DNA from: Planctomycetota bacterium
GTDB lineage: Bacteria > Planctomycetota > SZUA-567 > H5-PLA8
Direction: 5' to 3'
Assembly (NCBI GenBank): GCA_045863855.1
Contig: BTVV01000046.1
Coordinates: 1-43,155 of the forward strand
Length of the DNA stretch: 43,155 bases
Made by a program: the position numbers and the translations under genes. Below are positions 3,791-22,477 of the stretch, piece by piece (position 1 is the first letter of the stretch; each line of letters starts with the position of its first letter). The notes beneath the pieces are model-generated. The model made no database searches. It was not told where the DNA came from and saw only the letters and a program-made list of their open reading frames with translations.

Positions 3791-3791
3791 G

Positions 3792-4289: not shown

Positions 4290-4315
4290 GATGGATCTCC
4301 TTGGATCAGCGCGGC

Positions 4316-4822: not shown

Positions 4823-4877
4823 GGCGATTCTCCTGGTTTTGCGGGGATTGAAGGCGTTTCGCGGCGTTTGCGGCGGA

Positions 4878-5383: not shown

Positions 5384-5393
5384 AAGATCTCCT

Positions 5394-5543
5394 TCAGGGC
5401 CGCGGCGCGGCCAGGGTTCGAGGCTTGGGGCGTTGGACCACGCCGCACTGCTGGCAGGTCCACTCGGTCTCCTTGACCGTGTGCTTCTGGGTGGACTTGC
5501 AGGCTGCGCAGTAGCGCAGGTCCGTGGCTCGCGGGCGCTTCAT
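5394..5543 (-). CDS. Small Zn-ribbon protein
   Basis: CAAC...CQQC; ATGA overlap with the upstream gene. Confidence 0.6.
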   Translation of the reverse strand: MKRPRATDLRYCAACKSTQKHTVKETEWTCQQCGVVQRPKPRTLAAPRP

Positions 5544-5779
5544 GGATCGAACGCCCGGTCGATGCCGCCGTACTCGGCGCCGCGTTCGGCCGCGAGTTCG
5601 CGCGTGGTCTTGCGGCAGAGGGTCGCAATCTGGATCAGGCTCAGGCCCGGCCCTTCGTGCGAAACCGGAGCCGACTCGCCGTGTGCCGAGCCGGCTTGAT
5701 AAATGCTCTCTATCCCGTCGGGTCCGACCTGGAAGACCTCGTACCCGTGTTCGTTGTACTCTCCGCAAATCTTGGGCAT
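5540..5779 (-). CDS. Hypothetical protein
   Basis: ORF with GGAG RBS. Confidence 0.65.
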   Translation of the reverse strand: MPKICGEYNEHGYEVFQVGPDGIESIYQAGSAHGESAPVSHEGPGLSLIQIATLCRKTTRELAAERGAEYGGIDRAFDP

Positions 5780-5782
5780 GGC

Positions 5783-5881
5783 TCACGCTCCCGTCAGTAG
5801 GTAGATGATCCCGGCGAGCGCGGCGACAACGCACGCCACGCCGATCAGCAGGATCCAAACGTCACGCTCGGCGCGTTTCAT
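5783..5881 (-). CDS. 32-aa single-TM peptide
   Basis: Manual translation MKRAERDVWILLIGVACVVAALAGIIYLLTGA; GGAG RBS. Confidence 0.55.
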   Translation of the reverse strand: MKRAERDVWILLIGVACVVAALAGIIYLLTGA

Positions 5882-6026
5882 GGGAATCTCCGGGGTTTAA
5901 GTGGGCCTGGGCGCAGGAGAGAACCGGCGTTCGTAACGCGCCGGTGACTGCGTGAGGGGTACTTCGTGGAGATTGGGCGGGTGACTACGAGGCATACGTC
6001 GCCCGCGCCCAGGCCCCCTCTATTCT

Positions 6027-6290
6027 TCAGGCGTTCGCGATGCGCCGGTCGGCTGCCTCGATTACGGGCTCGAGCGCCTTCTCGGATTCGAGTTCGGACT
6101 CGTGCTCGGAGTAGACGGCAAGGCCCTTGAACTGGCCCTTAGCCACCTCTTCTTCGATCTCGCCGCTCAAATACTTCGGATCCTCCAGCACGATCACTCG
6201 CCCTATGGCGACCTTCGGGTTGTTGTGCACGACTCGATCCACGACGCCACCGTGCATGACGACAATCACTTCCACCGCTTCGGCGCACAT
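6027..6290 (-). CDS. Hypothetical protein
   Basis: ATG 6290 after GGAG; in frame with ORF 6027..6557. Confidence 0.6.
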   Translation of the reverse strand: MCAEAVEVIVVMHGGVVDRVVHNNPKVAIGRVIVLEDPKYLSGEIEEEVAKGQFKGLAVYSEHESELESEKALEPVIEAADRRIANA

Positions 6291-6294
6291 GAGT

Positions 6295-6984
6295 TCAGTT
6301 CTCCAGGGCCTCGTCGGTCTCATGCGGCGCTTCGACGACGGCCGGCTGCGCCGAGGACGCCGACTTCGGTTCTGGGAGCCGGGCGGGCGTGAGGTAGAGC
6401 GCGGACTGCCCGAGGCTCTTGCGGAACGCTTCGGCGGATTCGCGGGTGCTGAAGGCGATCGCCTTGCGCCACTGCCGGGTCGCGGCCTGCCCGTCGCCGT
6501 GGAGGTACTCGCGGGCGCTGAAGCGCAGCGACCACGGCATCCCGCCGTCTTCGGCACGCTCGACCCGGATCAGCTTCGGCTTCTTGCGGGCCGGCCGGTC
6601 GTAGTACGCGCGGATCTTCTCGATCCACGCCGGGCTCACGCTGTCCAACGCTGCGGTCGCCGACTTGTGCCGGGTGCTCGAGTGGAGCGCGATGCCGGGC
6701 TGGATGGGGTGGTTCGAGGGGCGCAGCCGGGCGACCGGGCGGCCGCACGAATCGACGTAGGTGAACCACGCCGACTTGCCGGACTCGACTTCGCGGATCT
6801 CGCGGCGCTGGGCCTCGATCTCCTTGCGCTGCGCGTCCCGCAGCGCCTTCAGTTCGGCGGCGCGCTTGCGAGCCGCGGCGGCTTGCTCCCGCGCGCGGCG
6901 GTCCGCGTCCTTGGACGCCTGGACGGCCTTGTCCACGGAATCCCGGCCGAGCGCTTGGCCGAGCACGTTCTGCATCACGATCAT
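6295..6984 (-). CDS. Hypothetical protein with coiled-coil N-terminus
   Basis: ATG 6984 after AGGAG; in frame with ORF 6295..7020. Confidence 0.65.
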   Translation of the reverse strand: MIVMQNVLGQALGRDSVDKAVQASKDADRRAREQAAAARKRAAELKALRDAQRKEIEAQRREIREVESGKSAWFTYVDSCGRPVARLRPSNHPIQPGIALHSSTRHKSATAALDSVSPAWIEKIRAYYDRPARKKPKLIRVERAEDGGMPWSLRFSAREYLHGDGQAATRQWRKAIAFSTRESAEAFRKSLGQSALYLTPARLPEPKSASSAQPAVVEAPHETDEALEN

Positions 6985-7029
6985 TTGGATTCTCCTGACC
7001 TCGTGGTTGACCCTACCCAATGCTTGTGA

Positions 7030-7260
7030 TTAAACGCAAACCGGGAGCGCGGAAATATAACTGCGCTGGCGTACGCGCTCCGCCTTGTCGGCCTGTTCGA
7101 GCCATCGCTCCGCGCCGACCTCGTCGCCGCGTTCGGCCGCCTGGGCGGCGAATTCGAGACAGTCTGCGTGCTCGACCAGGCGATCGAGATGTTCCTTCTC
7201 GGCCCGGCGGCGGGATCGGCGCGCGCGGCGGCGCAGGTCGGAGACGTAGTAACGGGGCAT
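7030..7260 (-). CDS. Hypothetical protein
   Basis: AGGAG RBS immediately after a terminator hairpin. Confidence 0.65.
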   Translation of the reverse strand: MPRYYVSDLRRRARRSRRRAEKEHLDRLVEHADCLEFAAQAAERGDEVGAERWLEQADKAERVRQRSYISALPVCV

Positions 7261-7272
7261 CGCGGTGCTCCT

Positions 7273-7301
7273 AACAAAAAGCCCCGCCGGATTGGCGGGG
7301 C
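7273..7301 (-). terminator. Intrinsic terminator-like hairpin
   Basis: Minus strand GCCCCGCC-AATCC-GGCGGGGC followed by TTTTTGTT. Confidence 0.7.
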
Positions 7302-7371
7302 ACGGGACGACGGCGGGCCGTCCGGCTCGGAGCCTGATCGCAGGCCCCGGCCCGGAGGGTCCGGCTACTCC

Positions 7372-7494
7372 TTAACCCACTTGGTCCGGGCGGCGTAGGT
7401 CGCCCTCGCAGTTCAGCCAGGGCGTGAAGCCTTCGTACGTGAACTCGGGCCACTTCCCGTCCTTCATCACGTCGATCTTGACGTAGCGGGTCAT
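7372..7494 (-). CDS. Small hypothetical protein
   Basis: MTRYVKIDVMKDG...; ATGA overlap. Confidence 0.5.
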   Translation of the reverse strand: MTRYVKIDVMKDGKWPEFTYEGFTPWLNCEGDLRRPDQVG

Positions 7495-7781
7495 GCGTAT
7501 TTCTTCTCCACGTGGGCCTTGAAGCTCTGGAGCGTCACGCCGTAGGGCAAGCGGCCGACAAAGATCAATCGCTCTCCGTTGGGCTGAATGGCCTCGAAAA
7601 CGTGGGCGCCACGAAGATTCCGGTTCACGATGTCGAGAAGCTGCTTGGTCATCTCGGCGATACTGACCTCGCACTCGCCCCGATTGCGCTCCAGGGACGC
7701 CTGCACGTCGGACAGGGCGTCGGGGTCGTCCGGTCCGTTGTCGATGATCCCTCGCTCGATTTGGATGATGCGCGGCTTCAT
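7491..7781 (-). CDS. Hypothetical protein
   Basis: MKPRIIQIERG...; AAGGAG RBS; ATGA overlap. Confidence 0.65.
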   Translation of the reverse strand: MKPRIIQIERGIIDNGPDDPDALSDVQASLERNRGECEVSIAEMTKQLLDIVNRNLRGAHVFEAIQPNGERLIFVGRLPYGVTLQSFKAHVEKKYA

Positions 7782-7951
7782 GCTTGCTCCTTTTGCAGGG
7801 CGCGTTCCACCGCCGCGGCGACTCGTAAATAGCCGCCGGCGCGCAGGATCGCGACGATCTCGCTTGCGTTGTTCTGCGCTCGGATGGTTTCCAAGTTGCT
7901 CCTGACCATCCACATCTCGAATGGATCGAGCGGCCGCTGTTTCGTCTTCAT
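7778..7951 (-). CDS. Hypothetical protein
   Basis: MKTKQRPLDPFEMW...; abuts neighbours. Confidence 0.55.
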   Translation of the reverse strand: MKTKQRPLDPFEMWMVRSNLETIRAQNNASEIVAILRAGGYLRVAAAVERALQKEQA

Positions 7952-7953
7952 AT

Positions 7954-8151
7954 TCAGCCCGCCGCCACCACGAACCGGAGCGGTTCGCGGAGTTCTTTGC
8001 GGGCGGCGCGTTGGGCCGCGAACTTGGTGACGTAGGGCAGATCGTCGGAATCGCCCTGGGACTGCCAGCGCCAGGTCTTGACGCCGGGCGTCGGGCACGG
8101 GTTCGTGCGGTCGCGTTCGATGTAGACGGTGCGCAGGTTCTTCATGCTCAA
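7954..8151 (-). CDS. Hypothetical protein
   Basis: GGAGG RBS. Confidence 0.55.
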   Translation of the reverse strand: MSMKNLRTVYIERDRTNPCPTPGVKTWRWQSQGDSDDLPYVTKFAAQRAARKELREPLRFVVAAG

Positions 8152-8360
8152 TCCTCCATTCCCAGGCCCTCTCGGGCGGACTCGGCGACAGCGTGCGCCA
8201 GTTCGTTTCGGGTGGCCGCAGGTCCGGAGCAGATGTCCAGGATTTCTTGCAGCTTTTGGCGCATGCGAGCGCGCGATTTCTCGTCTCGCTCGTGCGCTTT
8301 GGCATCGGTCGCGATGCGCGCGTGGTAGATACGAAGCTGTTCCGGTGTCAATCCCGTCAT
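8148..8360 (-). CDS. Hypothetical protein
   Basis: MTGLTPEQL...; GGAGG RBS; ATGA overlap. Confidence 0.6.
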   Translation of the reverse strand: MTGLTPEQLRIYHARIATDAKAHERDEKSRARMRQKLQEILDICSGPAATRNELAHAVAESAREGLGMED

Positions 8361-8767
8361 TCGAGCGCCTCCGAGGCTTGTTTGAGTGCGGCTTCCATGC
8401 CGGCCCGAATTTGGGCGGACACCTCGGATAGCCAGTCGTATGCCTGATCGAAGGTGACTTCGCGCAGATTGCCGCGCTCGTAGATGTAGACGTGCGCCCA
8501 AGGCAGCGTGATCTTCATGCGCTCGACATCGCCGGAATCCCCGAACGCCTTGACCAGGCAGCACAGGTAGTACGGTGCGCCTTCGTCGGTCCAGGGACAT
8601 ATCAAGTGAGTTCCGGACTCCCGGAGTATCCAAACAAACTTATCGAGCTGCTCTTTCTTGATCCATTTCACGTCGATGCCGAGATCGCCGTCGTAGTATT
8701 TGGGCCAGCCGTGCTTGCGCACTTCTGCGGCCATGCAGGCGGGTAGTCCATGGGGAATGATGGGCAT
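8357..8767 (-). CDS. Hypothetical protein
   Basis: AGGAG RBS; operon context. Confidence 0.7.
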   Translation of the reverse strand: MPIIPHGLPACMAAEVRKHGWPKYYDGDLGIDVKWIKKEQLDKFVWILRESGTHLICPWTDEGAPYYLCCLVKAFGDSGDVERMKITLPWAHVYIYERGNLREVTFDQAYDWLSEVSAQIRAGMEAALKQASEALE

Positions 8768-8776
8768 GACGTTCTC

Positions 8777-9235
8777 CTAGTAGCCGGCCGCCTCGGCGGC
8801 GTAGTCGCGCTGGAATGCCCGAACGGAGCGCCAGTCCGGGAACGCGATGCCCGGTCCCGGCCAATCGCTCTCGTTCGCGTAGCCGTTCTTGAGATCCGCG
8901 ACCGGGCAGCAGGATTCGCTATGGGAATCGAGCCGCCCGTCGCAATCGCGCGCGGACTCTTCGAATTCCGCGTAGATGACCGCTTCGTCCTTCGGGTACT
9001 CGTACTTCGAGTATCGATGGCAGTAGCCCTCTTCGGTCGCTCCGCCTTCGGCCAGTTCGATCGTGTCGCCGGGGCGCATGGTCAGCTTGACCGGGCTGCA
9101 TTTGTGCGTGATCCAGAAGCGGGCCGTCCGGGTCGGCGTCTCTTTCAGGCGCTCCGGTTCGCCGGACTCTTCGCAGCCGGCGCAGAAGCCGTCGCCGCAA
9201 GGACAGGGATCCTGCGTGTATCGTCGATCAGGCAT
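8777..9235 (-). CDS. Hypothetical phage-type protein (DCDGR motif, Cys-rich N-terminus)
   Basis: ORF overlapping the upstream gene. Confidence 0.7.
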   Translation of the reverse strand: MPDRRYTQDPCPCGDGFCAGCEESGEPERLKETPTRTARFWITHKCSPVKLTMRPGDTIELAEGGATEEGYCHRYSKYEYPKDEAVIYAEFEESARDCDGRLDSHSESCCPVADLKNGYANESDWPGPGIAFPDWRSVRAFQRDYAAEAAGY

Positions 9236-9620
9236 GACGCATCCCCTTTCGGGCTTCGTATTGGGCCTTGCCGCAGGCCGACGTATCCACGCAGGTCATT
9301 TCGGCGACATCCTGGGCGCAGTAGCCCCGCGCCAGCATGACCTCGCGGCACTGCGCTTCGCGCGACGCGATCACGGTCGCGACGAATCGCTGAAGGAAAT
9401 AGATGTTCCAGTATCGGTCGCGCGGAGCCGCGCTGTCTTTAGGCGCGGGCCTGGCTTCGACGGTCCAGTTGGATCCGCTCGCATCGCCGCGCCCTTTGCC
9501 AATCCGCAGTTCCTTGGCCCGATAGCGCGCCTCCATCTCGCACATGAACTCGTGCGATGTGAAAGGCTGGGCCTCGCCGGTTGCGCGGTTCACGTGGTAC
9601 AGCATCCAGAGTTCGTCCAT
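9228..9620 (-). CDS. Hypothetical protein
   Basis: ATG 9620 after GGGAGG. Confidence 0.6.
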   Translation of the reverse strand: MDELWMLYHVNRATGEAQPFTSHEFMCEMEARYRAKELRIGKGRGDASGSNWTVEARPAPKDSAAPRDRYWNIYFLQRFVATVIASREAQCREVMLARGYCAQDVAEMTCVDTSACGKAQYEARKGMRHA

Positions 9621-9733
9621 GCGTCCTCCCTTGCGAATCTGGTTCGGGTGAGGTAGGTTGCGGATGAGGCTTGCGCCGGTTCCGCTGTGCTGCCCCCGTG
9701 GTGACAACACGGGGGCTTCGTTTTTAGTGACAC

Positions 9734-9819
9734 TAGGGGCAGAGGGATTCGAACCCTCACGAGGCTTGCGCCTCGCGGTCGTGACAAGACCGCGCGTCTG
9801 CCAGTTCCGCCATACCCCC
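9734..9819 (-). tRNA. Non-canonical class II tRNA: tRNA-Leu-like body with GTC (Asp) anticodon; CCA not encoded
   Basis: Full cloverleaf: GGGGGTA-TG-GCGGAACTGGCAGACGC-G-CGGTC[TTGTCAC]GACCG-CGAGGC(GCAA)GCCTCG-T-GAGGG[TTCGAAT]CCCTC-TGCCCCT-A. Confidence 0.9.
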
Positions 9820-9831
9820 AGGCACTACCCT

Positions 9832-10062
9832 TCAAAACAGCCTGCGATGCTCGACGCAAACATCCTCAACCCCTGCCTCTTTGAGCAGCCGCCGCGCGTA
9901 CGAAACATTGACTGGGCTGTGCATCGTGAGGTATTGGCCATCCAGAGAAAGCTCGTAGGCCCACTGCTTGAAGTGGCGGCTCATTACGGCGTCCACCTCC
10001 GTCCACTTCCAGCGGTAGGCCGGAATGGCCGGCCTCGGCTTCGGGCTGAGTTCCATGCTCAA
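9832..10062 (-). CDS. Hypothetical protein
   Basis: ORF ending 12 nt before the tRNA. Confidence 0.6.
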   Translation of the reverse strand: MSMELSPKPRPAIPAYRWKWTEVDAVMSRHFKQWAYELSLDGQYLTMHSPVNVSYARRLLKEAGVEDVCVEHRRLF

Positions 10063-10271
10063 GATCCTTTCTTAGCGTGCCGGGCGGCGCAGCGGTCCGC
10101 TTCCACGTCGTCGTCGAGGCGGCGCCAGCCCAGCCGTTCGTAGCGCTCGGGATCGGCCTCGTAGCGCTTGATGCCCTCGCGGGCGAAGTTGAAGTCGAGA
10201 CGGCTCTGGACACAGTAGCGGAACCAGTCGTCCAGCCGGTCCGGAGGCATGGTGGTTCTCTCGGAGTTCAT
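10059..10271 (-). CDS. Hypothetical protein
   Basis: MNSERTTMPP...; ATGA overlap. Confidence 0.55.
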   Translation of the reverse strand: MNSERTTMPPDRLDDWFRYCVQSRLDFNFAREGIKRYEADPERYERLGWRRLDDDVEADRCAARHAKKGS

Positions 10272-10549
10272 CGGCGTGTTCTCCAATCTCGCTGAAGCTG
10301 CCGGTATTCGACCTTGGTGAGCTTCCCGTCGTGCGGGTACATGGAGCGGATCACGCGGGACTCTTCGAAGCGGATCGCCAGATCGTCTCGCGTCGGGTCC
10401 ATGTGCCGACGCATGTCCTCCAGCCATTCCACCTTTTCGCGGATCCGGTTCAGCGCGTTGCGTTCGGCGGCTTCGCGGGTGAATCCGCAACCCGTAAAGC
10501 CTTCCACCGCTCCGTCGTGGTGGCGGTAGGCCAGCCTGTACTCGTACAT
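10268..10549 (-). CDS. Hypothetical protein
   Basis: AAGGAGG RBS. Confidence 0.7.
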   Translation of the reverse strand: MYEYRLAYRHHDGAVEGFTGCGFTREAAERNALNRIREKVEWLEDMRRHMDPTRDDLAIRFEESRVIRSMYPHDGKLTKVEYRQLQRDWRTRR

Positions 10550-10679
10550 GCGAGTCCTCCTTGTTCAGATGCCCACGGCGATCCAGGGCATCGGTTCGAT
10601 CGGCAGGCCGGACCATGCGATCAGCACGGAGCCGTCCGAGACGATCTGGATTCCGTACGAGAGCGTGTAGAAGCGCATT

Positions 10680-10865
10680 TCAGCGCCTCCAGGCCAGCGA
10701 GTTGTTGTTCGGGTCGTCTTTCGGATCGAACGCAGCGACGCTGGGGTCGCGCTTGCAGATCCGCGCGGCATGAACGAGCGCGCAGGTTTCGACCCAGTTC
10801 CAGCGGCCGTCGTCGCCACGGGTCCAGATGGCCACGTAGGCGGTTCGGTGAAGCACAACGGACAT
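10680..10865 (-). CDS. Hypothetical protein
   Basis: MSVVLHRTAY...; TAAGGAG RBS. Confidence 0.6.
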   Translation of the reverse strand: MSVVLHRTAYVAIWTRGDDGRWNWVETCALVHAARICKRDPSVAAFDPKDDPNNNSLAWRR

Positions 10866-10876
10866 GGCGGTTCTCC

Positions 10877-11269
10877 TTAGCTCATGTAAGAGCGACGGCA
10901 CCCTTGGTCGCAGAACTGGGCGTGGTGCGGCTGGTAGGGCATGCTTCGTCCGCACCAGCGGCATTCGCTGCCGGCGGCTTCGCGGATGGCTTGCAGGCGT
11001 CGTTCGTGGCGCCGCTTGAGCTTCACTTCGCGGTCGCGCGGAAGCCCGCCGCGGATGTTGATGATCTCGTTCGCGTAGTGCGCGAAGTCGCGCAGGATCT
11101 CTTCGCGCGATTGGGGCCACCAAGCCGCCAGCCCCTTCTTGAACATGCTGCCGGGCGGCGCTGATTTGACGCGCTTGTACGCCTCGACGTATTGGCCGGC
11201 CGTGACCATGCGATCCATGCACTTAAAATGCTTGGGCACCCATGGGGCCGGGGACGCGGTCGCGGGCAC
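10877..11269 (-). CDS. Hypothetical protein with C-terminal Zn finger
   Basis: CRWC...FCDQGC; AGGAGG RBS. Confidence 0.7.
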   Translation of the reverse strand: MPATASPAPWVPKHFKCMDRMVTAGQYVEAYKRVKSAPPGSMFKKGLAAWWPQSREEILRDFAHYANEIINIRGGLPRDREVKLKRRHERRLQAIREAAGSECRWCGRSMPYQPHHAQFCDQGCRRSYMS

Positions 11270-11493
11270 TAAAACACCTCCTGTCCCATGAGGTAATCCA
11301 CGAAGCAGTCGAAGCGCGCGTACGCGCGTTTCAGCGCTTCAGGATCGGGGTCGCCGGAGAGCATCTGGCTTTCGGGCGTCGCGGCGCGCTTGCAGACGGT
11401 TCCGCGCGCTTCGTCGAGCGCGCGGATGACCTCGCGCTTTAAGCGCGCGCGTTCGAGACGTGTCTCGGCTTCGGTCATGGCAGTCCGTGGCAT
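11269..11493 (-). CDS. Hypothetical protein
   Basis: MPRTAMTEAE...; TAAGGAG RBS. Confidence 0.6.
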   Translation of the reverse strand: MPRTAMTEAETRLERARLKREVIRALDEARGTVCKRAATPESQMLSGDPDPEALKRAYARFDCFVDYLMGQEVF

Positions 11494-11504
11494 CGTGGTT
11501 CTCC

Positions 11505-11732
11505 TTAGCAGTCGTCGGGGCCGGGCGTCGCCGGGAGTTCGAAGTAGCCGGCTTCGGCGCGGAGCGTGCGGATGGTTCCGTCGTCCGCCTGGATCCGTTC
11601 GGCGTAAATCCATTCGGGCGCGTAGATGATCTCGGGATCGCGCGCGGCCTTCAGAAACCAGCCGGCCGCGAAGCAGAGGGCCGCAACTCCGAGCAGCACG
11701 AGCGCGCGGGTTCGGTCGTATTTGTCGGGCAT
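11505..11732 (-). CDS. Small membrane-anchored protein
   Basis: N-terminal hydrophobic helix; GGAG RBS after a terminator. Confidence 0.6.
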   Translation of the reverse strand: MPDKYDRTRALVLLGVAALCFAAGWFLKAARDPEIIYAPEWIYAERIQADDGTIRTLRAEAGYFELPATPGPDDC

Positions 11733-11745
11733 GGCGATTCTCCAG

Positions 11746-11776
11746 AAACAAAAAAGCCCCACGGGATCGCGGGGCT
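11746..11776 (-). terminator. Intrinsic terminator-like hairpin
   Basis: Minus strand AGCCCCGCG-ATCC-CGTGGGGCT followed by a T-rich tract. Confidence 0.7.
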
Positions 11777-11869
11777 GACGTTGCGAATGAAAAGGCCGGG
11801 CGCGTCACATGTCGGCGTCGTGGACTCGATACAAGCTCCGTCTTGCCCGTGGCACGCGCCCGGCCCAGT

Positions 11870-12235
11870 TCATTTTCCTTGCGGCTTACGAACGTATTCC
11901 CCCAGCCGCACGTCGTAGCGGTACACGCGATCCAGCGGGGCGTAGGGCATCTTGTCGCACGTGCCGCACATTCGAGGCTTGTGTCCGCGCGGGATGTCCA
12001 TGTGATTCGGGCAGATGCAGCCGCGGTCGCAACAGCCGCACGTGAGGTGCTTGGTCGGCGCGCGTTCGATCGAGAACGCCGGCGCCGCTCCCCCGCCCCC
12101 GCTGAAGACTTCGCCCCGTTCGAGCGTGCGGGTAATCAGAGCGGCGTCATCGCGGAGCCCGTCGTCCTGGGCCAGCAGGGACGCAAGGGTGCCGCGCCAT
12201 TCGTGCGACGTGCCCTTATTGACGATGATGCGCAT
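11870..12235 (-). CDS. Cys-rich hypothetical protein
   Basis: CGCCDRGCICPNH...CGTC; AGGAGG RBS. Confidence 0.6.
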   Translation of the reverse strand: MRIIVNKGTSHEWRGTLASLLAQDDGLRDDAALITRTLERGEVFSGGGGAAPAFSIERAPTKHLTCGCCDRGCICPNHMDIPRGHKPRMCGTCDKMPYAPLDRVYRYDVRLGEYVRKPQGK

Positions 12236-12246
12236 GCAACGTCCTC

Positions 12247-12483
12247 CTATTTCGAGATCAGGACTGCCGGGTAGCGCTCGATCGTGTTCGCCCAATCCGC
12301 GCGGGGCTCGACGGCGATCACCTTCATCCGGCCGTCGAACGTGACGCCGGACGATACAACCGACTCGGCCGTGAGTTCGCGGATCTCGATGTCGCGCTGC
12401 CGCCAAAGGCTCTTGTGGAGTCCAATGACCGGGAGCGCCTCGATCTCGGACTCCGAGAGTCCGGAATGGTTGTGCGTAACCAT
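12247..12483 (-). CDS. Hypothetical protein
   Basis: AGGAG RBS. Confidence 0.65.
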   Translation of the reverse strand: MVTHNHSGLSESEIEALPVIGLHKSLWRQRDIEIRELTAESVVSSGVTFDGRMKVIAVEPRADWANTIERYPAVLISK

Positions 12484-12573
12484 GGCAATCGTTCTCCTGG
12501 GTTCAGGAACCTTCGTTCGAGGGCGACGTAGCGGCGTGCCGATTCAACGTCGCCCCCGTACGGAAGCGCCTGG

Positions 12574-12759
12574 TTAGTCGGCGGCGGCCGGGGTGAGCGT
12601 CCGCGCCGGCCGATAGTTCAGGTAGCCGAGCAGGTTCTCGCGCTGGCTGTTCAGGCGTTCGAGCTTGGCCATGAGCTTCGCGCGTTCGCGTTCGCACTTC
12701 GCCAGGTTCTGCGCCGCCATCGCGCGGTTGCGGATTTCTTCGATCGTGTCTTCGGGCAT
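12574..12759 (-). CDS. Small coiled-coil protein
   Basis: GGAGGT RBS. Confidence 0.65.
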   Translation of the reverse strand: MPEDTIEEIRNRAMAAQNLAKCERERAKLMAKLERLNSQRENLLGYLNYRPARTLTPAAAD

Positions 12760-12771
12760 GGTGCTACCTCC

Positions 12772-12801
12772 AAGAAAAGCCCCCGCCCGATTGGCAGGGG
12801 C
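12772..12801 (-). terminator. Intrinsic terminator-like hairpin
   Basis: Minus strand GCCCCTGCC-AATCG-GGCGGGGGC followed by TTTTCTT. Confidence 0.7.
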
Positions 12802-12831
12802 GAACGCTCGGGCTCTTAGGAGCGCGGGCGT

Positions 12832-13020
12832 TCAGGCGACCTGCTGCTTGGTTCGAGGCATGTAGAGCGGAGCGCCGTATTGCTTCGCGGTCAGCTCGGC
12901 GAGCGGGCGGATGGCCTCGGGCTTGCCCTGGACCGACTCTTCGGGAATTTCCTTCCCGTTGGCGTCCTCGACTTTCAGAGTCCACCATTCCGGCGAGTTC
13001 TGCGAAACGATCACGCGCAT
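12832..13020 (-). CDS. Hypothetical protein, first gene after the structured leader
   Basis: GAGGA RBS; ORF. Confidence 0.65.
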   Translation of the reverse strand: MRVIVSQNSPEWWTLKVEDANGKEIPEESVQGKPEAIRPLAELTAKQYGAPLYMPRTKQQVA

Positions 13021-13038
13021 GACGTTTCCTCTTTTCCA

Positions 13039-13567
13039 GGAAAGTCGGGACAGAGTTTCTCTGCGGATTTCGGTGAGAATTTAGGACGGCTGTTCAATGG
13101 AGATGCCTGGGGCCGGAGCGGTGCCTTGCGACACGACTCCGGCGCCCAGGCGATCCGTGTACGTCGTTCTAGCAGTTAGCTTTGACCCTCGGGCTACCGA
13201 CCTGGCTGGCCCCCAGCTTTAAGAGCGCTAGGTTCTCGAACTGGCTTGACGTTGGGAAGGGTTCAGGCGCTATGGCCTCGCAGACGGGATCCAGGGCATA
13301 CCTTTTTCGCCTGTTCTTTAGGATTTCGCTGGGCATGGTGTCCCAGCTACTACCAGGCACCCGACGCTGCGGCGTGACTCCCCGGCACGTTCAGCCGGAT
13401 AGGACATTCGAGTTACAAGCGGGCACGTGGTATCAGCACGATGCCGGCTTCCCGGTTCGGGCGGGCCGGCCACGGTGGACAGAGTTGCTCTGCACACCTG
13501 GCCAGTCCGGTTCAGGGACTCGCGGTTCCTGCAACGTCACGGTCGCCCAGTTCACACCCGACTTTCC
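13039..13567 (-). ncRNA. Candidate large structured non-coding RNA or leader (~530 nt)
   Basis: 11-bp closing stem 13039-13049/13557-13567; nested helices 13238-13244/13547-13553 and 13247-13254/13532-13539; many local hairpins; no convincing ORF. Confidence 0.55.
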
Positions 13568-14135
13568 GTAGGGACAGAGCATCTAAGGCGTTGCTCGACG
13601 CTAGGCGCGTCCAGCCTTCGATGCCTTGCCAGTCCGGAAAATCGGAACAAGCAACGGCTACGCTGCATATTGGATAGACTCGCCGATTGCATCCTGGACG
13701 GTTTAGCCGCTCCATACCGGAGCGACCGTCTAGGACCGCGCTCGACTGCAAACGCGCCTCTAGGACGCGCGCTATCGCTTGCGACCGGACTTCGCGAAGG
13801 AATCGGCTATGAGCGGAAAGCAGTAGAGCAATCGGAATGGAGCGTAGGGTTTGCCCGGATTCGATGGAGCGCGCTATCGGATGCCCGATTCCCAGACGGA
13901 TAAGGCGCGCCACTTGTTGAGGTGGCCACAATCCGGGTTAGGACTCATTCCGAACGGCTAACGCGCGTAATCGAGCGGATTCTACCTATCGCGCCGATTG
14001 TTGCGGCTTTCCCTACCGATTCCCTCGTACCTATCCGGCCTATTCACTGCATCCGGAACGGATCACAATTCCATTCCAATAGAGCAGGCGCGCCAGACTT
14101 CTAGGCGCGCCTACCCTACGGAAACGGATTAGCGT

Positions 14136-14786
14136 TTACGAAGCCGCCGCCGCCGTATACTCCGGCTTTTCCGAACCGACCGAAGCCGCAACGGTGGAAA
14201 CGCTGGCCGATTCCTTCGCGGCCGATTCCACGCGCTCCAATACGCCCTTGGTCAAGGATTGGAGCGCTTCCCCGTTGCATCCTTGCGCGATATGGAGCGC
14301 CAGCCGGACCGTTTCGTCCGTCGTCAAGTGCCGTAGGGAATCGACGGCGCGCTCGTACTTGGTCTTTTCCTTCGGAGTTGAGCGCTTGCGACCCATAGCG
14401 CTATCGAGAATCGAAAGCGCTTCCTTGTCCGAACCGGCATCCGCCCAGTCTTGAAAGCATCCGTGTTTGTTGGCGTCTTTCATTTGAGCGGCGAGACTGC
14501 ACGCGCGCTCGACTCGCGACCGATCGACGATGCAAGGCAGACAAGCCACTTCGAAACGGTCCAGCGCTTCCTTGCGCGTTTCGGTCGGATGCTTGGCTTT
14601 GATCCAAGCCACGACACGTTTGCCCAGCGTTGCCAGCCGAACGCGCGTTTCCCTGGACAACGCGCTAAAATCCTTCGCGATTGCCAAGGGCGATTCGACT
14701 TCCTTCACTTCCTGGACAGGCTGAACCGGAGCGCGCTCCGCTTGCGCATCCGCTTCCACGTCCAACGGCACAAATCCGCTATCCAT
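14136..14786 (-). CDS. Hypothetical protein
   Basis: ATG 14786 (MDSGF...) after AGGAG; long ORF in a compositionally distinct segment. Confidence 0.6.
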   Translation of the reverse strand: MDSGFVPLDVEADAQAERAPVQPVQEVKEVESPLAIAKDFSALSRETRVRLATLGKRVVAWIKAKHPTETRKEALDRFEVACLPCIVDRSRVERACSLAAQMKDANKHGCFQDWADAGSDKEALSILDSAMGRKRSTPKEKTKYERAVDSLRHLTTDETVRLALHIAQGCNGEALQSLTKGVLERVESAAKESASVSTVAASVGSEKPEYTAAAAS

Positions 14787-14999
14787 GACTCCTACTCCTA
14801 TCCGCTCCATACCGGAGCGCTCCTAAGCGCTTCCGACCAAACCCGAACGGGCTTGCAATCGGGAAGTGCTCGACTACAAACCGACCGAACGCGCAAGCCA
14901 AACGAGACCGACAAGCCCGACCATTCCAGGAAGGCAAACGAGGAAGGCAACGGCTAGGGATTTTGGCGACATAGGAAGCGCTCCGAACGGTTTTCGATA

Positions 15000-15950
15000 C
15001 GGGAAGTAAACAACCTAATTCCGATTTTGCAATCGTCGCAATTGTAATTTTGCAAGTATCTCATAAAGTGAATGCAGAAAAGTATTTAGGATATACACAA
15101 AATCAATTATGATTCAGTGTGAGTTTATAAGTATATGGTATTAAAAGAGTTAACGAATTGAATCTAAATTGAAGCATTAGAGAATCTTTATTGAATCATT
15201 AAGACCAATTACCATTTTAATCTCATAACTGCATTACATATAATTACTTACGAGATTGAACTACCTATGTTGTACCTAGGTTGAATATCGTGTAAAGGCT
15301 TGTAAGGCAGGGAGTTAGAGGGGGAATCCTAACTTTCCCGGACTAGTTCCGAGACTTAGGTACCTAAGTGAAATTTTTCGATTTTCCCGCAGGTCATATC
15401 AATATGATAAATTTTTCCTAATCATACCCTAAATGATATTTATATCTTTTCCCTCGTTTTCCTAACTTAGGTTAGAGCAACGATAATATAACCTCAATAC
15501 TTGCAAGCGCTTGCGTCGAGCATAGGGGGGATATTTTCCCAAGTTAGGTCTATTTTAGCAAGGTAGCCGGGGAGGTCCTCACCTCACACTATCCCCCATT
15601 TCAAACCGCCAGTCCCATTTCAAATTTGCAAAAATTTAGGGTACATCCGGTCCTTCTGATTGAATCATCCTCGTTTCCAGGGAGGGGGGATGTGTTTGGC
15701 AGCAAGGGGTTACGAATACTCAGAGCCCCTCCCCTACTACCAAAGGCGTGTACTCTATATATTGTATAAGAGTATTGAATATATATAGATATAGGGGGTT
15801 AAAAAGGAAAACACTTCCCTTATATAGACTATTCTGAAGCGCATACTGCCTGTTTAGCCCTCGCGCTCAATTATTAAACCTTGTCTATCAAACGAGTTAA
15901 GACGCCACGATTCGCCTCATATTAAAGCGCAAACAGCGGGACTTACGTGG
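15000..15950. other. AT-rich non-coding block with repeated protein-binding-type motifs (candidate packaging terminus, origin or oriT)
   Basis: TAA-N19-TT(A/G) at 15064, 15128, 15226, 15293, 15489 and 15875; repeated CCTAA/TTAGG; 16-bp palindrome ACTTAGGTACCTAAGT at 15354-15369. Confidence 0.6.
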
Positions 15951-16607: not shown

Positions 16608-17012
16608 ATGATCGAAGGCCATGAGGTAGGGGTGAAGTGGTCGCGCGAGGATTCGTGCTGGATCGCCGAAGCGATCGACCTGCCGTTCGTTGCGGCACAC
16701 GGGGAATCGCTCGACGAGGCGATCCGCCAGCTCGAGATCTGTATCCAGGCTGTCGCGGAGGAACGCAACCGGGAAGCGTTTAGACGCAACGTGGATCGAC
16801 TTTTCGACCGCCACCCGTGGAAATACGCGATCTTCCACGAAGCACGCCTGGCCGGCATCGCGCCGGATCGAGCGACCGCGCTGCGGTACGCGCGCACGAA
16901 GCCTGGGGCGCTGGCCCGGCAGATCGTCCGCGCGAGCATGACGCACCGCGGCCGGCCGTGCTTCACGATGGAGGACGCCGCGAAGATGGATTGCCCGTGG
17001 CCGCCGTACTAA
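16608..17012 (+). CDS. HicB-like antitoxin domain protein (no adjacent hicA seen)
   Basis: WSREDSCWIAEAIDLPFVAAHGESLDEAIRQL matches the HicB N-terminal pattern. Confidence 0.65.
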   Translation: MIEGHEVGVKWSREDSCWIAEAIDLPFVAAHGESLDEAIRQLEICIQAVAEERNREAFRRNVDRLFDRHPWKYAIFHEARLAGIAPDRATALRYARTKPGALARQIVRASMTHRGRPCFTMEDAAKMDCPWPPY

Positions 17013-17252
17013 GCCCGCTTATTTAATTCGAATCCACGATTCGCGAATTGCGAACACCTAACTACTTGCCGGGCTACGGATTGTTTATTTGACTGGATCC
17101 CCGAATCGGGCCAGCAATCGGGCCATTGTGGCCCGTAAGCCGCAATCGCCCCGGCGCCCGAGTCGCTTCGAAACATCGGCACTTATCACGAACTACCGAC
17201 GTTCCGGATTCAAAATCCGCTGCTTTCCTATGGGCGCCGCCTCGCCGCAACA

Positions 17253-17295
17253 CCGGCACACGAACCGGCACAAATTCCGGCACAAATCCGGCGCA
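17253..17295. repeat. Four CCGGC(A/G)CA direct repeats (integrase arm-site-like) of the left element
   Basis: Copies at 17253, 17265, 17277 and 17288, ending ~35 bp from the tRNA 3' end. Confidence 0.6.
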
Positions 17296-17328
17296 CGATA
17301 TATAAGTCCTTGGCGTTAGAAGCTTTTA

Positions 17329-17405
17329 TGGCGTCCCCAGGAGGACTCGAACCTCCAACCTGCGGATTAGAAATCCGCTGCTCTGTCCGGTTGAGCTATG
17401 GGGAC
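17329..17405 (-). tRNA. tRNA-Arg(TCT), CCA encoded
   Basis: GTCCCCA-TA-GCTCAACCGGACAGAGC-A-GCGGA[TTTCTAA]TCCGC-AGGTT-GGAGG[TTCGAGT]CCTCC-TGGGGAC-GCCA. Confidence 0.97.
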
Positions 17406-17406
17406 G
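17364..17406. repeat. att direct repeat, left copy (43 bp)
   Basis: Identical to 33939-33981. Confidence 0.95.
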
Positions 17407-17503
17407 TTACTTAAAGCCTTTATTATCAAACACTTTGCTTGTTGACTCGCTCCCGATACTATGATACAACACCGGTACAACGATACTACGGGAGACAACA
17501 CCC

Positions 17504-19087
17504 ATGCAGATCACGCCGAAGCCGAATCCAGGGCGCCCGGGCTGGCGGGTTACGTTCCGGCATCCGGTCACGAAGCGCATCGTCACGGGCGGCCTTTCCA
17601 CAAGGGACGAGTCGGCGGCAGTCACGGTCTGCCGGCACCTCTCCAGCCTATCCGATCGGCCGGAACTCTGGCAAGAACCCGAGAACCCCGTTCTCCTGGG
17701 CTTCGCCTTGCGGGCGGTGGAATTGTGGTTCGGTTCGGACTCCGCACACGCGGCTTTCGTGCGCAAGAACACCGACCCCAACCGGCCGCTGGTCAAGCCT
17801 GACGAGGCGGCGGCGCTGCGCTCTGTCGAGGACAACCGGAAGCTGCTGGCGGAAGTCGCCGCGGCGACGGGCGCGACGGTGAACGCGCCAAGCCTTGACG
17901 ACGTGTTGCAGCGCATCCCGTCCACGTTCTTTGCCGAGTATGTGGCGCTGCAAAACCGCTGCCGGGAGCAGGCGGCGCGGCTGGCCGATATTGAGCCTGA
18001 GCTTGAATCGTACCGAGTGGAGCTTGACCGCATCCGGCGCAAGGCGAACGAGCACGTCAAGGTGAGCATGGGCGCGGCGTGGGACGCCTTTACCCAAGAC
18101 GACGATTACAAAGCGCTGCACCCCAAGACGCAAGCGGACCTAGACCGCGTGGCGGCGTCTTTCATTGGATCCCTTCGCGGCGGGCGGCACTTCCGGCTTG
18201 CTGAGGTTCGGGCGGCGCATGTGGGGACGTGGCTTTCCGCGCTGCGTAGCGCCAAGCGGACCAAGGACGGGAAGGCGACCGGGGCCGCGCTGTCGGCAGT
18301 CACGAAGGCGAAACAAAAGCGGTATCTGTCCGTGTGGATGACCTTCGCGTTTAAGAAATTCGACCTGAGCGAAAACCCGATGGACAAGACGGGCAAGGTA
18401 AAGGGCGCGGCCGTGGGGCGTGAGGACATCGCGGCCTTCCGGGTGGCTGACCTCCGCGCGTTCCGCGAGATGCTCGATACGCTCGCAACTCAAGACCACT
18501 ACTGGCACGCGCTGGTTGCCACGGCGACGCTTGCCGGGCCGCGCTACTCTGAACTTGCTTGGATGAAGATTGAGCACGTGAACTTGCAGGCGAACGAGAT
18601 TGTCATAGCCACGCGGCGCGACGGGGAGACGGTGACAGGGACCAAGACGGGCCGGGAGCGGCGCTTGCCTATCGAGTCCACCGTTCTACGCGCGGCGCTG
18701 GAGGCGCATATCAAGCGGCGGCTGGCCGAACAAAAGCGCAAGGGCGCGACGGCTGCCGAGCGCTCCCCTTTCCTGTTTCCGTCCACCGTGGGCGACCATC
18801 CGGGCAAGCCGCGCACCCTGACGCCGGCGGGCATCTGGTGCGAGTCGAGTACGTTCCTGCGCGCATGGCGCGGCGTGGCGGCGCGGTGCGAGGAAGTCAC
18901 CGGCGCGCGCGACTACTGGCGCTTTGGGCCTCGTGAGTGGCGGCACTGTGCCGGTACGGCCATGGGGTATTCGGGGAACGATTCGCTCCGCATCTCCGCA
19001 TGGCTGGGCAACTCTGAGGACGTTTGCCGAAAGCACTACATCAGGACTTCGGAGAAGGGCGAGCGGTGGCCGTTTGAGTGGCGCTAA
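17504..19087 (+). CDS. int: Tyrosine recombinase / integrase
   Basis: GPRYSEL (Arg), TKTG (Lys), PREWRH, WLGNS, KHY (Tyr); adjacent to att. Confidence 0.92.
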   Translation: MQITPKPNPGRPGWRVTFRHPVTKRIVTGGLSTRDESAAVTVCRHLSSLSDRPELWQEPENPVLLGFALRAVELWFGSDSAHAAFVRKNTDPNRPLVKPDEAAALRSVEDNRKLLAEVAAATGATVNAPSLDDVLQRIPSTFFAEYVALQNRCREQAARLADIEPELESYRVELDRIRRKANEHVKVSMGAAWDAFTQDDDYKALHPKTQADLDRVAASFIGSLRGGRHFRLAEVRAAHVGTWLSALRSAKRTKDGKATGAALSAVTKAKQKRYLSVWMTFAFKKFDLSENPMDKTGKVKGAAVGREDIAAFRVADLRAFREMLDTLATQDHYWHALVATATLAGPRYSELAWMKIEHVNLQANEIVIATRRDGETVTGTKTGRERRLPIESTVLRAALEAHIKRRLAEQKRKGATAAERSPFLFPSTVGDHPGKPRTLTPAGIWCESSTFLRAWRGVAARCEEVTGARDYWRFGPREWRHCAGTAMGYSGNDSLRISAWLGNSEDVCRKHYIRTSEKGERWPFEWR

Positions 19088-19440
19088 CCCGTTGCGGAAA
19101 AATGGGTTAGGCAAGGCTGAAACAAACCGGGCGGAAAGTTCTATTTTTCGCGCGGGACGGTGGTAAAAGGTGGCTGGCTTCGTGGCTGTGAACCGCGCGA
19201 GCCGATGGAACCGAACAAGACAACCGAATATCGCCCCGAGGGATGCGTAAGCCGAAAGGCTCGCGGCCTTCACCGCCAGGTGAACGCTTCACAATCCCGA
19301 CCGGGGCGGTTGTTGTCCAAGGAAGGGGTGCGGCGGGACGGCGCTTGAGACTCTCTATCCATGGCAAGGCACGGCTTGGCAAGGGGTGGTGTCGTACTTC
19401 GTGAAGTAGAAAACCAAACCCTTGAATTAGGAGAAAAGTC

Positions 19441-19641
19441 ATGGTTACAGAGACGCGCGTTGGACCGAAGCGGTGCAATAAGGCATCGTTGGCTAAGGTT
19501 GGCGTGACGTTTGGAGAGGGCTATCCCTATCGCCTCTCGTTTCTTTGTGATGAATGCGGGAACGAGTGGTGGCCCAATCTGAAGTCTGGCGGGAAGCTGC
19601 CGCGCGGATATTGGAAGTGCCCGCGTGGTTGTAACCACTAA
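19441..19641 (+). CDS. Small Zn-ribbon protein
   Basis: CDECG...WKCPRGC; AGGAG RBS. Confidence 0.65.
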   Translation: MVTETRVGPKRCNKASLAKVGVTFGEGYPYRLSFLCDECGNEWWPNLKSGGKLPRGYWKCPRGCNH

Positions 19642-19686
19642 GTTTTAGCGTCACCCGCCGCACCTAGACTTGGAAAAGGAAGGTAC

Positions 19687-19893
19687 ATGGGAAAGCGTAA
19701 GAAGAAGTCGGAACGGCTTTTGAAAGTGCAGGAGTATTCCGCACCCCAAAAGCCGCAACTCGTGAAGGTACAGATTGAGGAAGTACCACAAAAGCCGCAA
19801 CTCGTGAGAGTACAGATTACGGAAGCACCCCAAAAGCCGCGACTTTTGAGGGTGAAAGTGCGCGCTGCGAAAGGAGGCTCTATCGGTGATTGA
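19687..19893 (+). CDS. Small basic protein with three 14-aa repeats
   Basis: (A/V)PQKP(Q/R)L x3 encoded by 42-bp tandem repeats at 19741-19866; AAGGAAGG RBS. Confidence 0.55.
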   Translation: MGKRKKKSERLLKVQEYSAPQKPQLVKVQIEEVPQKPQLVRVQITEAPQKPRLLRVKVRAAKGGSIGD

Positions 19894-20030
19894 GCAGTAA
19901 AGAAGCGGGGCCGGCCAGTGTTGGAATCACCGACCGACCCCTAACCGTTCCACGTGAAATAGGCACGCGGCCCGGCTGCCGATTGTATCGGCAGATTCGG
20001 CGCTGCCCTACACTTTGAGAGGGGCAGACC

Positions 20031-20297
20031 ATGCAGCAACCAACACCGGATGTAATCTTAGAGTCCTTGCGCCCGCTCGCGGCGCTGATTTTGGAATCGG
20101 AAACGGCGCGTGACTGGTTCGCGGGCCACCTCGCGGAAGTCGCGGGCACTTTCACCTACACCCTGCAAATGCAGGAAGTCTACCTCGATACCTTCGAGCG
20201 CTTCGCCACGGCGACCGGTCAACCTGATTTGATACAGGAGGCGGCGGATTATCGGCGCGACCACAATGAGCACCACGGGAAGGCGGTGAGCGCATGA
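20031..20297 (+). CDS. Hypothetical protein
   Basis: ORF; ATGA overlap with the next gene. Confidence 0.65.
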   Translation: MQQPTPDVILESLRPLAALILESETARDWFAGHLAEVAGTFTYTLQMQEVYLDTFERFATATGQPDLIQEAADYRRDHNEHHGKAVSA

Positions 20298-20914
20298 AGC
20301 GCCAAACGATTCCGAGTGAGCTTGAACCGCTGGCGGCGTATTTCAAGGACGACCCGGAAGGGCTGGCTTGGGGGCTGCTGCGGGCGGTGGCTGACGACAT
20401 GAACCTCGACGAAGAATGGACCGGGCATTACGTCGAGACGGCGGCGCGGATCGCGGAAGGGCTTGCGCCCGACTGCGATTCGCGCGTGTTCGCGTGGGCG
20501 CTGGAATGGGGCGGGCGGTTCGGCGACCGGACGCGGCGAAAGGAAAGGACGCTCCGCGCGGTGAAGTACATGAAGGAAAACGCGGCGCTGGACGGGTGCG
20601 CGACTTGGGGCACGGCGGCGTTGTTCGGCGCTGAAACGATGTGTGAGTTAGGCGACGGCGCGGCGGCGCTGTCCTTGTTGGGCGAGTATATCAGTTGGTG
20701 TGCAGGGAAAACCGTACCGACTTGGGAATATGGAATCACCGAAGAAAGCAGCGACACCGTGGCGCGCATCCATGCGGCGGTGAAGGCGGGCGCATCCGCG
20801 CACGACGCGGGCTTGATGTTAGAGCGCGTGACGTGCGAGCTAGAACCGGCGCTGAAGGCGGCGGAGAAGCTGAGAGATGAGGCGAACGGCCGCCGAGAGG
20901 CGGTGAGCGTATGA
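20294..20914 (+). CDS. Hypothetical protein
   Basis: ORF; ATGA overlaps on both sides. Confidence 0.7.
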   Translation: MKRQTIPSELEPLAAYFKDDPEGLAWGLLRAVADDMNLDEEWTGHYVETAARIAEGLAPDCDSRVFAWALEWGGRFGDRTRRKERTLRAVKYMKENAALDGCATWGTAALFGAETMCELGDGAAALSLLGEYISWCAGKTVPTWEYGITEESSDTVARIHAAVKAGASAHDAGLMLERVTCELEPALKAAEKLRDEANGRREAVSV

Positions 20915-21495: not shown

Positions 21496-21579
21496 TTCTC
21501 GCGCGAAAATGCGGGGAATTGGTAGGCTTGGAGCATGGGCTAGGGTAGCTCCCGAAAAGCGGCCTCCGACCGCCTGCCC

Positions 21580-22398: not shown

Positions 22399-22477
22399 CC
22401 TGACAAAAGCTGACAAAACCCGCCCAAGCTGACCGGCAACCCCTGCCCTCCCCTGAGATTACAGGAGGACATGGGAT

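Follow-up and report, generated by a model that had tools for sequence, protein, structure and literature searches.

The window, a stretch of 43,155 nucleotides that makes up contig C46 of a 6.9-Mb planctomycete genome (G000), was found to hold a real and new structured non-coding RNA of about 1.1 kb that belongs to no catalogued family. Its fold, its conservation and its lack of a reading frame were all evident in silico. We tentatively propose, at somewhat less than an even chance, that the element flagged in this window is the 3' half of a leader of about 1.1 kb, and that this leader would gate an early operon of small genes in the manner of the lambda pL-nutL-N-tL1 region, with a much larger RNA (about five times the lambda leader).

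Extent and fold of the leader RNA

The preliminary description of the window had marked about 530 nt as a structured element ending just before the ribosome-binding site (RBS) of the first operon gene. The position next to the RBS was correct, but the gene lies on the minus strand (ATG at 13020); because the small genes run leftward from this ATG, the RNA is the minus strand, the reverse complement of the letters that had been quoted. The length given was too short: structure and conservation extend upstream, without an ORF, as far as about 14130. The structured feature is the entire gap between the two genes (14135-13021, minus strand, about 1.1 kb), and the flagged part is its downstream half. 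We treated the feature as a leader of about 1.1 kb because the adjacent spacer is also structured and conserved. This upstream half had been overlooked, as had the alternative pairings that turn the end helix into a putative switch. The leader was compared with that of G002, a Planctomycetota MAG of the same genus and the sole genome with a homologous leader. The parts of the locus are listed here with their window coordinates.

14136 to 14786, minus strand: upstream gene, 216-224 aa, all-helical; 87% DNA identity in G002; covered by RNA contigs
13593 to 14130, minus strand: upstream structured domain with a 12-bp hairpin (14083-14115), a long rod (about 13790-14035, invariant core CAAUCGG/CCGAUUG) and further hairpins
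13039 to 13567, minus strand: flagged element; core 96-100% conserved, two variable hairpins (13462-13509 and 13309-13358) that keep their shape
12832 to 13020, minus strand: first gene, 62 aa, small beta-beta-beta-alpha fold, in the position of lambda N

Comparison with shuffled sequences, proposed in the preliminary description, showed that the 529 nt of the flagged element fold better than expected on both strands (z -4.43 for the plus and -5.90 for the minus strand, with 0 of 100 shuffles as good), the ends of this sequence having been picked at the perfect helix. The G002 version of the element gave z -4.8, and the spacer between the stop of the upstream gene and the element gave z -7.1 in G000 and -5.4 in G002. 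The upstream domain keeps its fold although the two genomes are only about 51% identical over 13839-14135. When 19 windows of 529 nt were each compared with 20 shuffles, z fell below -2.8 in two of them only, namely the element (-5.6) and its neighbouring spacer at 13600-14128 (-5.05). Sub-windows of 300 nt within the element folded weakly (z -0.7, +1.6 and -2.5), so the fold signal of the element comes from its long-range helices. With DNA parameters the minus strand also folded (z -4.4).

The perfect pairing of the ends was present as 11 bp (13039-13049/13557-13567). A perfect 11-bp inverted repeat appeared by chance in 2.7% of 150 shuffles, and a second one nearby (13563-73/14114-24) is absent from G002, so that repeats of this length also arise as chance events. 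Two long-range helices spanning about 300 nt had been noted, and both were found: GAACTGG/CCAGTTC at 13238-44/13547-53 and TGACGTTG/CAACGTCA at 13247-54/13532-39. The latter is invariant in G002, but the former is not kept whole there, since a U>C change at 13240 gives A.C and costs one pair; the same change mends a local helix, CCAG(U/C)U/AGCUGG, by turning U.G into C-G. The long hairpin described in the element was recovered at 13105-13151. The two near-identical hairpins correspond to a 17-nt repeat at 13048 and 13477 (94% identity), but the copy at 13479 does not persist as such in G002, where GCAGAG alone is kept.

No credible reading frame had been seen in the element, and none was conserved between the two leaders. 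The interior indels that separate them measure 7, 5, 1, 2, 5, 3, 1, 4 and 8 nt, so the leaders share no reading frame; the open stretches that they have in common shift frame.

Conservation and compensatory change

The core blocks of the element are 96-100% identical between G000 and G002, compared with 80-93% for the flanking genes, and the changes cluster in the two shape-keeping hairpins. Three adjacent compensatory pairs were found in an element hairpin (13505-13503/13466-13468), and the 12-bp hairpin at 14083-14115 carries three compensatory and two consistent changes. In a covariation test, pairs with a probability above 0.9 in one genome were scored on the other; the test has two haplotypes only, and the alignment is poor in the region of about 50% identity. 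On the minus strand, both-sided changes that remained paired numbered 19 of 33 (null 12.5, P 0.013) in one direction and 12 of 18 (null 7.3, P 0.022) in the other, whereas the plus strand gave no significant excess (8 of 11, P 0.07; 13 of 30, P 0.52). One-sided changes showed no enrichment of kept pairing (11 of 38, P 0.28; 7 of 17, P 0.12). The collection of homologues and the covariation analysis suggested in the preliminary description thus yielded one homologue and compensatory change (P 0.01-0.02) that gives modest backing to the RNA fold, as judged from two sequences. It speaks neither for nor against the end helix and TGACGTTG/CAACGTCA, because both are invariant in the two genomes. A candidate pseudoknot of 8 bp (13581-74/13493-86), with a G-C>G.U change in G002, competes with the hairpin formed by strands A and B of the switch.

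Chance hairpins in decayed genes or in GC-rich intergenic DNA could in principle look similar, and the weakly folding sub-windows, the chance occurrence of 11-bp repeats and the single relative would agree with that. However, the contrast in identity between the core and the flanking genes, the peripheral hairpins that diverge yet stay paired, and the standing of both leader halves as outliers among the 19 windows largely refute this explanation, which is highly improbable. A new large RNA, one of the possibilities originally offered, is instead upheld by the fold, the island of conservation, the compensatory changes in variable hairpins, contigs from metatranscriptomes and the absence of an Rfam match.

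Searches for homologues and known RNA families

DNA searches of 101 relatives, 62 genomes of the class and 401 genomes of the phylum returned no third version of the leader; a weak match in the class set (G017, E 0.009), assessed by alignment, and a match inside a coding frame in the phylum set (G277) were not counted as versions of it. A covariance model of 13550-13740 run on the 62 class genomes gave no further version, and neither did blastn against phages and plasmids. Sequence patterns searched in IMG/VR gave 98, 0 and 3 matches, none of them homologous (the adjoining DNA was examined for 80 of the 98). All seven matches of a metagenome pattern search were due to chance, the genome pattern search matched G002 alone, and protein-based routes led to no further leader locus.

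The Rfam comparison, likewise proposed at the outset, gave no match to the leader at the gathering level or at E<=10 for G000, and none at E<=1 for the loci of both genomes. The segment GGAAAGUC presumably resembles RNase P, a reading that was rejected in the absence of an Rfam match. Group II introns have a domain V with a catalytic triad and a domain VI with a bulged A. A group II intron was also considered, from GUGUG after strand B and CCCGAC at the element end, and was rejected: Rfam gave no match, a domain V was lacking, and the last bases held no bulged A at a distance of 7-8 nt from the end. Rfam includes models of GOLLD, ROOL and OLE (PMC12286853, in the excerpt used), and identity with any of the three was ruled out because no covariance model matched. 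No description of the leader RNA was found in the literature, the scope being mostly open papers, with screen supplements that hold motif lists outside it.

The probable prophage and its attachment sites

The left 17.3 kb of the window is part of an element integrated in tRNA-Arg(TCT).

17329 to 17373, minus strand: attachment site (3' half of tRNA-Arg TCT); second copy at 2572-2616 of contig C8 of G000, adjoining an integrase and a cI-like repressor

The end of the G002 element that matches contig C8 encodes a tyrosine integrase and a repressor in which HTH and S24 domains were recognised. The G002 copy is inserted at tRNA-Thr, and the element is mobile because the two copies occupy different tRNA sites. 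No P-loop_TraG (TraG/VirB4-type) match was found in G000, which is 94% complete. Read from the cI-like repressor and integrase at its far end and from this lack of a TraG/VirB4-type match, the element is most likely a temperate phage. A further antiterminator gene could exist, or the element could be an ICE, since the middle of the prophage is missing from both assemblies. No head-tail module could be linked to the prophage, and a phage structural contig of G000 (C67) was not assignable to it.

The template strand of Frpo folds into a -35/-10 duplex, and cI-like repressors occur in ICEs too. A single-stranded DNA promoter of this kind, or an origin, in the leading region of a conjugative element was another of the possibilities first put forward, and it would accord with the repressor, with a minus strand that folds under DNA parameters, with the small-gene operon and with the unassembled middle of the element. 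The results ran against it. Covariation and GNRA loops favour the sense strand, not the template, no -35/-10 pair was found in the stems of the leader, and the element is likely a prophage, with no match to a TraG-type protein in its nearly complete host genome; a DNA promoter is accordingly a very remote prospect.

Several other features were observed around the attachment sites. Words of the form CCGGCACA are repeated at window 17240-17300 and at 2430-2500 of contig C8, beside both att sites, and also at the att site of G002; they are probable integrase arm sites, common to both prophages despite the different tRNAs. A contig end in G002 (L138, contig C7, 15696-15945) is 87% like window 16940-17211, suggesting the end of a second related element. 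Window positions 17364-33981 form a 16.6-kb satellite-like island at the same tRNA-Arg with a 43-bp att repeat; its genes encode an integrase, a replication initiator, a DnaB-like helicase, two small terminase subunits, a tape-measure protein and an endonuclease, no capsid family was recognised among the ORFs scanned, and an int-alpA RNA match lies within it at 21533-21596. A gene-free AT-rich block at 15000-15900 (40% GC), partly 95% conserved in G002, is a candidate promoter, origin or packaging region. Elsewhere in G000, an array of 26 tRNA genes (contig C1, 23667-28178) lies about 18 kb from terminase and capsid-like genes.

A putative four-strand switch at the first ribosome site

The end helix of the element shares its strands with two competing helices, one of which covers the RBS of the first gene.

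13635 to 13645, minus strand: strand A; pairs with B over 11 bp with one G.U and closes a -48 kcal/mol hairpin
13557 to 13568, minus strand: strand B, 5' arm of the end helix; partner A or C
13038 to 13049, minus strand: strand C, 3' arm of the end helix; partner B or D
13021 to 13030, minus strand: strand D, Shine-Dalgarno region of the first gene; C:D hairpin -9.5 kcal/mol

All four strands are invariant in G002. Shuffling the upstream 100 nt gave B an A-like partner in 0.19% of 20000 trials. The forced OFF (A:B plus C:D) and ON (B:C) states had energies of -331.2 and -328.3 kcal/mol in G000 and of -336.9 and -337.2 kcal/mol in G002, so that the states lie within 3 kcal/mol of each other (gaps of 2.9 and 0.3 kcal/mol). 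The computed probability of A:B was about 1.0 until C is transcribed. At equilibrium B:C was preferred in G002 (0.85-0.90) and A:B in G000. Removal of A in silico brought B:C to 1.00 and C:D to 0.00 in both genomes. Without A, some pairing between the ribosome site and the first codons persisted (mean unpaired 0.37-0.46, compared with about 0.30), so the ON state is not fully open. No sigma-70-type promoter was found between A and B, and the trigger of the switch would therefore have to be processing or binding. From these computed structures it is plausible that the leader holds an RBS switch with an on/off role for the gene cluster.

A 17-bp palindrome, CGCTCC-N5-GGAGCG, occurs in exact copies in G000 at two places only, and both copies are kept in G002.

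14803 to 14819, minus strand: palindrome copy 1, directly preceding the upstream gene's RBS; candidate operator or protein-binding hairpin
13708 to 13724, minus strand: palindrome copy 2, at the apex of a conserved hairpin above A; a C-G>U.G change in G002 keeps RNA pairing

The pair is a candidate binding site.

Systems of the P4 CI and IsrK kind use an RNA of about 80 nt in trans, and Rfam holds a C4 model. An RNA-based switch of immunity or lysis-lysogeny could work here in the same way if a processed piece of a constitutive transcript paired with A- or C-like repeats and so controlled termination as well as translation of the 62-aa gene. Strand B has a complementary site on either side of it (A upstream, C downstream), much as P4 CI has seqA and seqC, the transcript is present in community RNA, and the Gifsy-1 IsrK-orf45 mRNA is likewise a prophage leader in which two alternative structures gate a small ORF, there upstream of an antiterminator cascade (for both systems, the excerpt of PMC4825925). 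However, B sits in cis stems and not in the loop of a small tRNA-like RNA, the leader is far larger, no trans RNA was identified at the locus, and neither a C4-type nor any other Rfam model matched. Most of the 1.1 kb would be left unexplained, and we regard such a switch as distinctly unlikely.

The leader in metatranscriptomes

Parts of the window were contained in 20 of the 22 sequencing runs listed, and 5 runs were recorded as RNA. Four runs were compared with the window, including two RNA runs (X11 and X18) and a DNA run of the same sample as X18 (X7). In X11, one contig of a G002-like strain (depth 181) covers 12749-13838; it spans spacer, element, first gene and terminator 1, extending 225 nt past both ends, and other contigs of this run cover the upstream gene to 14954. 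In X18, which belongs to another study, contigs cover 13166-14894. The RNA contigs are consistent with transcription of the upstream gene, the leader and the first gene, DNA in an RNA library being possible and contigs showing neither strand, ends nor RNA level. The upstream gene is probably co-transcribed with the leader. Its product has 12 relatives at E<=0.001, which form a small unnamed all-helical family with the motif KxAN..W; no Pfam or PHROG family and no fold match were found for it.

The depth in X11 was 133-181 on the main contigs over 12749-14954 (12-33 on contigs of minor strains), compared with 3.2-3.7 on two downstream pieces; with one figure per contig, at least two strains and a different gene after terminator 1 in the main strain, this contrast was not used as evidence. 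Positions 15066-15600 were uncovered in both RNA runs, and X18 lacked the downstream operon except for a spurious 40-nt piece, absent cover proving nothing, whereas the DNA run X7 covers parts of both. This pattern would fit termination after the first gene and was not counted as evidence. As a separate observation, a CAAAAT hexamer that the promoter scan did not list stands 6 nt above the contig end at 14954, and contigs cannot show starts.

The contigs also bear on a reading in which a large ornate RNA with a GOLLD- or ROOL-like role, either the 530-nt domain or all of the 1.1 kb, is excised from its transcript and stands free, with the end helix as a processing stem and the RBS pairing as incidental. 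RNAs of the GOLLD, ROOL and OLE group are discrete and abundant, with an oligomeric cage. The size, the prophage location, the closed ends, the rRNA-like pattern of an invariant core with variable peripheral hairpins and the presence in RNA runs of two studies would all suit this. GOLLD and ROOL are prophage RNAs of unknown function that share the size class, location and multi-domain fold, and the conserved 3' and variable 5' regions of the leader resemble those of GOLLD (PMC12286853, in the same excerpt). In contrast, the leader is embedded in an mRNA and coupled to the RBS. It has no terminator or promoter of its own and ends 18 nt before the start codon, its strand C overlaps the anti-RBS helix, the RNA contigs are continuous across its boundaries, and no Rfam model matched even at E up to 10. 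It also lies outside any tRNA island, with a single tRNA-like gene 3.2 kb downstream. Excision as an independent RNA seems rather unlikely.

Terminators, boxA and proposed read-through of the operon

The preliminary description had also offered an antiterminator as a role for the element, and this received indirect support from three conserved terminators directly before ribosome sites and from a boxA in the leader.

1133 to 12759, minus strand: operon of about 30 mostly small genes without family, a mosaic between the two prophages
12770 to 12801, minus strand: intrinsic terminator 1; next RBS 7-8 nt past the stem; compensatory C-G>G-C in G002
about 11748 to 11776, minus strand: intrinsic terminator 2; next RBS at +12; kept in G002
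7274 to 7301, minus strand: intrinsic terminator 3; next RBS at +8; kept in G002
13219 to 13227, minus strand: lambda-type boxA (CGCUCUUAA), located 207 nt above the first start codon in a loop with weak pairing; invariant in G002
13105 to 13151, minus strand: 20-bp hairpin with a GCAA tetraloop, between boxA and the RBS; invariant
13050 to 13064, minus strand: small hairpin GCAGA-GAAAC-UCUGU, about 155 nt beyond boxA, with a loop that is boxB-like by eye; invariant

All three terminators are strong and are followed by an RBS and start codon at +7 to +12 in both genomes. Because no promoter fits the gap between terminator and RBS, expression of the genes farther down requires read-through, unless undetected promoters lie above the terminators. 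Stretches of the leader complementary to terminator loops (6-8 nt) were dismissed, as they occur at about chance level by rough estimate.

The 9-mer boxA has 16 copies in the 6.9-Mb genome, which corresponds to a probability of 0.13% per 1.1 kb of one strand, and looser patterns reach up to 1% per leader, both for a motif spotted post hoc. The rRNA leaders of the host carry the box GCUCUUUGACAA, from which the leader boxA departs after GCUCUU, and the host encodes nusB. The 13105-13151 hairpin is a candidate RNase III or protein site. The lambda pL leader has an RNase III site and the terminator tL1. A boxB 7-8 nt behind boxA is absent from the leader, and the sequence there forms other helices.

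The 62-aa gene has 98.9% DNA identity in G002, the highest of 12 genes (80-93% for the other 11), which suggests RNA-level constraint or recent exchange. By analogy with the position of lambda N, its product is a candidate regulator. It has no relative outside its own cluster and no family match, its best fold matches (Z 5.5-6.3) are not decisive, and no arginine-rich motif was read from its sequence. A search with N36 gave no match and detected no control either, and the product may be an analogue of N without homology to it. No recognisable antiterminator protein was found in the window.

Among known systems, the leader would work most like the lambda pL leader, in which boxA is CGCUCUUA (PMC2724277, in excerpt) and nutL, placed about 200 bp above N with a structured gap between them, represses the translation of N (PMC5725501, in excerpt). 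The boxA 8-mer is identical to that of lambda and stands about 200 nt above a small first gene, with a long hairpin between; a terminator right after the first gene, more terminators in an operon of small genes and putative translational control of the first gene complete the likeness. The leader is nevertheless not a member of the nut/N class, as the boxB arrangement was not found in it and N was not found. It is about five times longer, has no boxB beside boxA, holds an explicit four-strand RBS switch and precedes a 62-aa protein without an arginine-rich motif or N-like match. The transcript also carries an extra upstream gene, the host is a planctomycete, and the operon points away from the attachment site.

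The RNA itself might instead be a processive antiterminator of the put or EAR type that needs no phage protein, the 530-nt domain closed by B:C binding RNA polymerase and the A/B exchange deciding its folding. The terminators directly before RBSs, the large invariant core, which includes unpaired stretches such as 13100-13065, and the window without a recognisable antiterminator protein point this way. HK022 putL and putR are structured RNAs that precede early genes interrupted by terminators, an N gene not being recognisable there, and put works without a trans factor over 10 kb (PMC9378689, in excerpt). Binding of put to the beta' zinc-binding domain is independent of protein. However, put is about 70 nt with two stem-loops and, in that excerpt, no reported need of boxA, whereas the leader measures 530-1100 nt, has a boxA and overlaps an RBS switch. 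A two-stem RNA of about 70 nt just below an early promoter was not found, nor was such a promoter in the leader. Moreover, the domain closes no sooner than 520 nt after B, A:B forms first, and boxA points to host Nus factors, so a protein-free antiterminator is on the improbable side.

Also unlikely, but deserving mention, is that the leader represents an undescribed class of ornate phage RNA of about 1.1 kb that combines a bistable fold with an antitermination machine. In such an RNA the upstream domain would hold the system off, and the released 530-nt domain would close, load Nus factors via boxA, itself replace an N-type protein in the read-through of intrinsic terminators and open the first ribosome site.

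In the lambda-like gating that we tentatively favour, a transcript presumed to start near or above 14950 on the minus strand would take in the upstream gene, the leader and the 62-aa gene and extend as far as terminator 1. As the RNA emerges, A is computed to capture B, and C would then fold onto the ribosome site and keep the 62-aa gene off. B could be freed for C by a trigger, for example if the A-B hairpin were cleaved or a protein or RNA bound near A. The B:C end helix would close the 530-nt domain and lift that block from the ribosome site. BoxA would load NusB/E of the host, and the leader would let RNA polymerase pass the terminators, probably with help from the 62-aa product or some other protein of the phage.

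Processive antitermination of phage early operons is understood in a few enterobacterial phages (N/nut and put). The present locus, in a prophage of an uncultured planctomycete, shows the same need of read-through and has a boxA identical to that of lambda at the distance of nutL. If the proposal is right, Nus-based phage control would extend to a distant phylum. Unlike GOLLD and ROOL, this large phage RNA would also have an obvious read-out, in the passage of terminators and in the translation of a single small gene.

Three further features of the operon region were observed. A second boxA-like 9-mer (CGCUCUUAC, the nutR form) lies at 10886-10894 on the minus strand, at the end of a 130-aa gene; it is kept in G002, and its conservation may reflect coding constraint. 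A conserved hairpin at 12803-12834 (minus strand), which follows the stop of the 62-aa gene and precedes terminator 1, has a 6-nt insertion in the strain of X11 and X7. The tRNA-like gene inside the operon (9733-9820, minus strand) was called by ARAGORN as tRNA-Asp(GTC), 88 nt with a long variable arm; it scores below the Rfam tRNA threshold, is closest to the host tRNA-Leu and is kept in G002.
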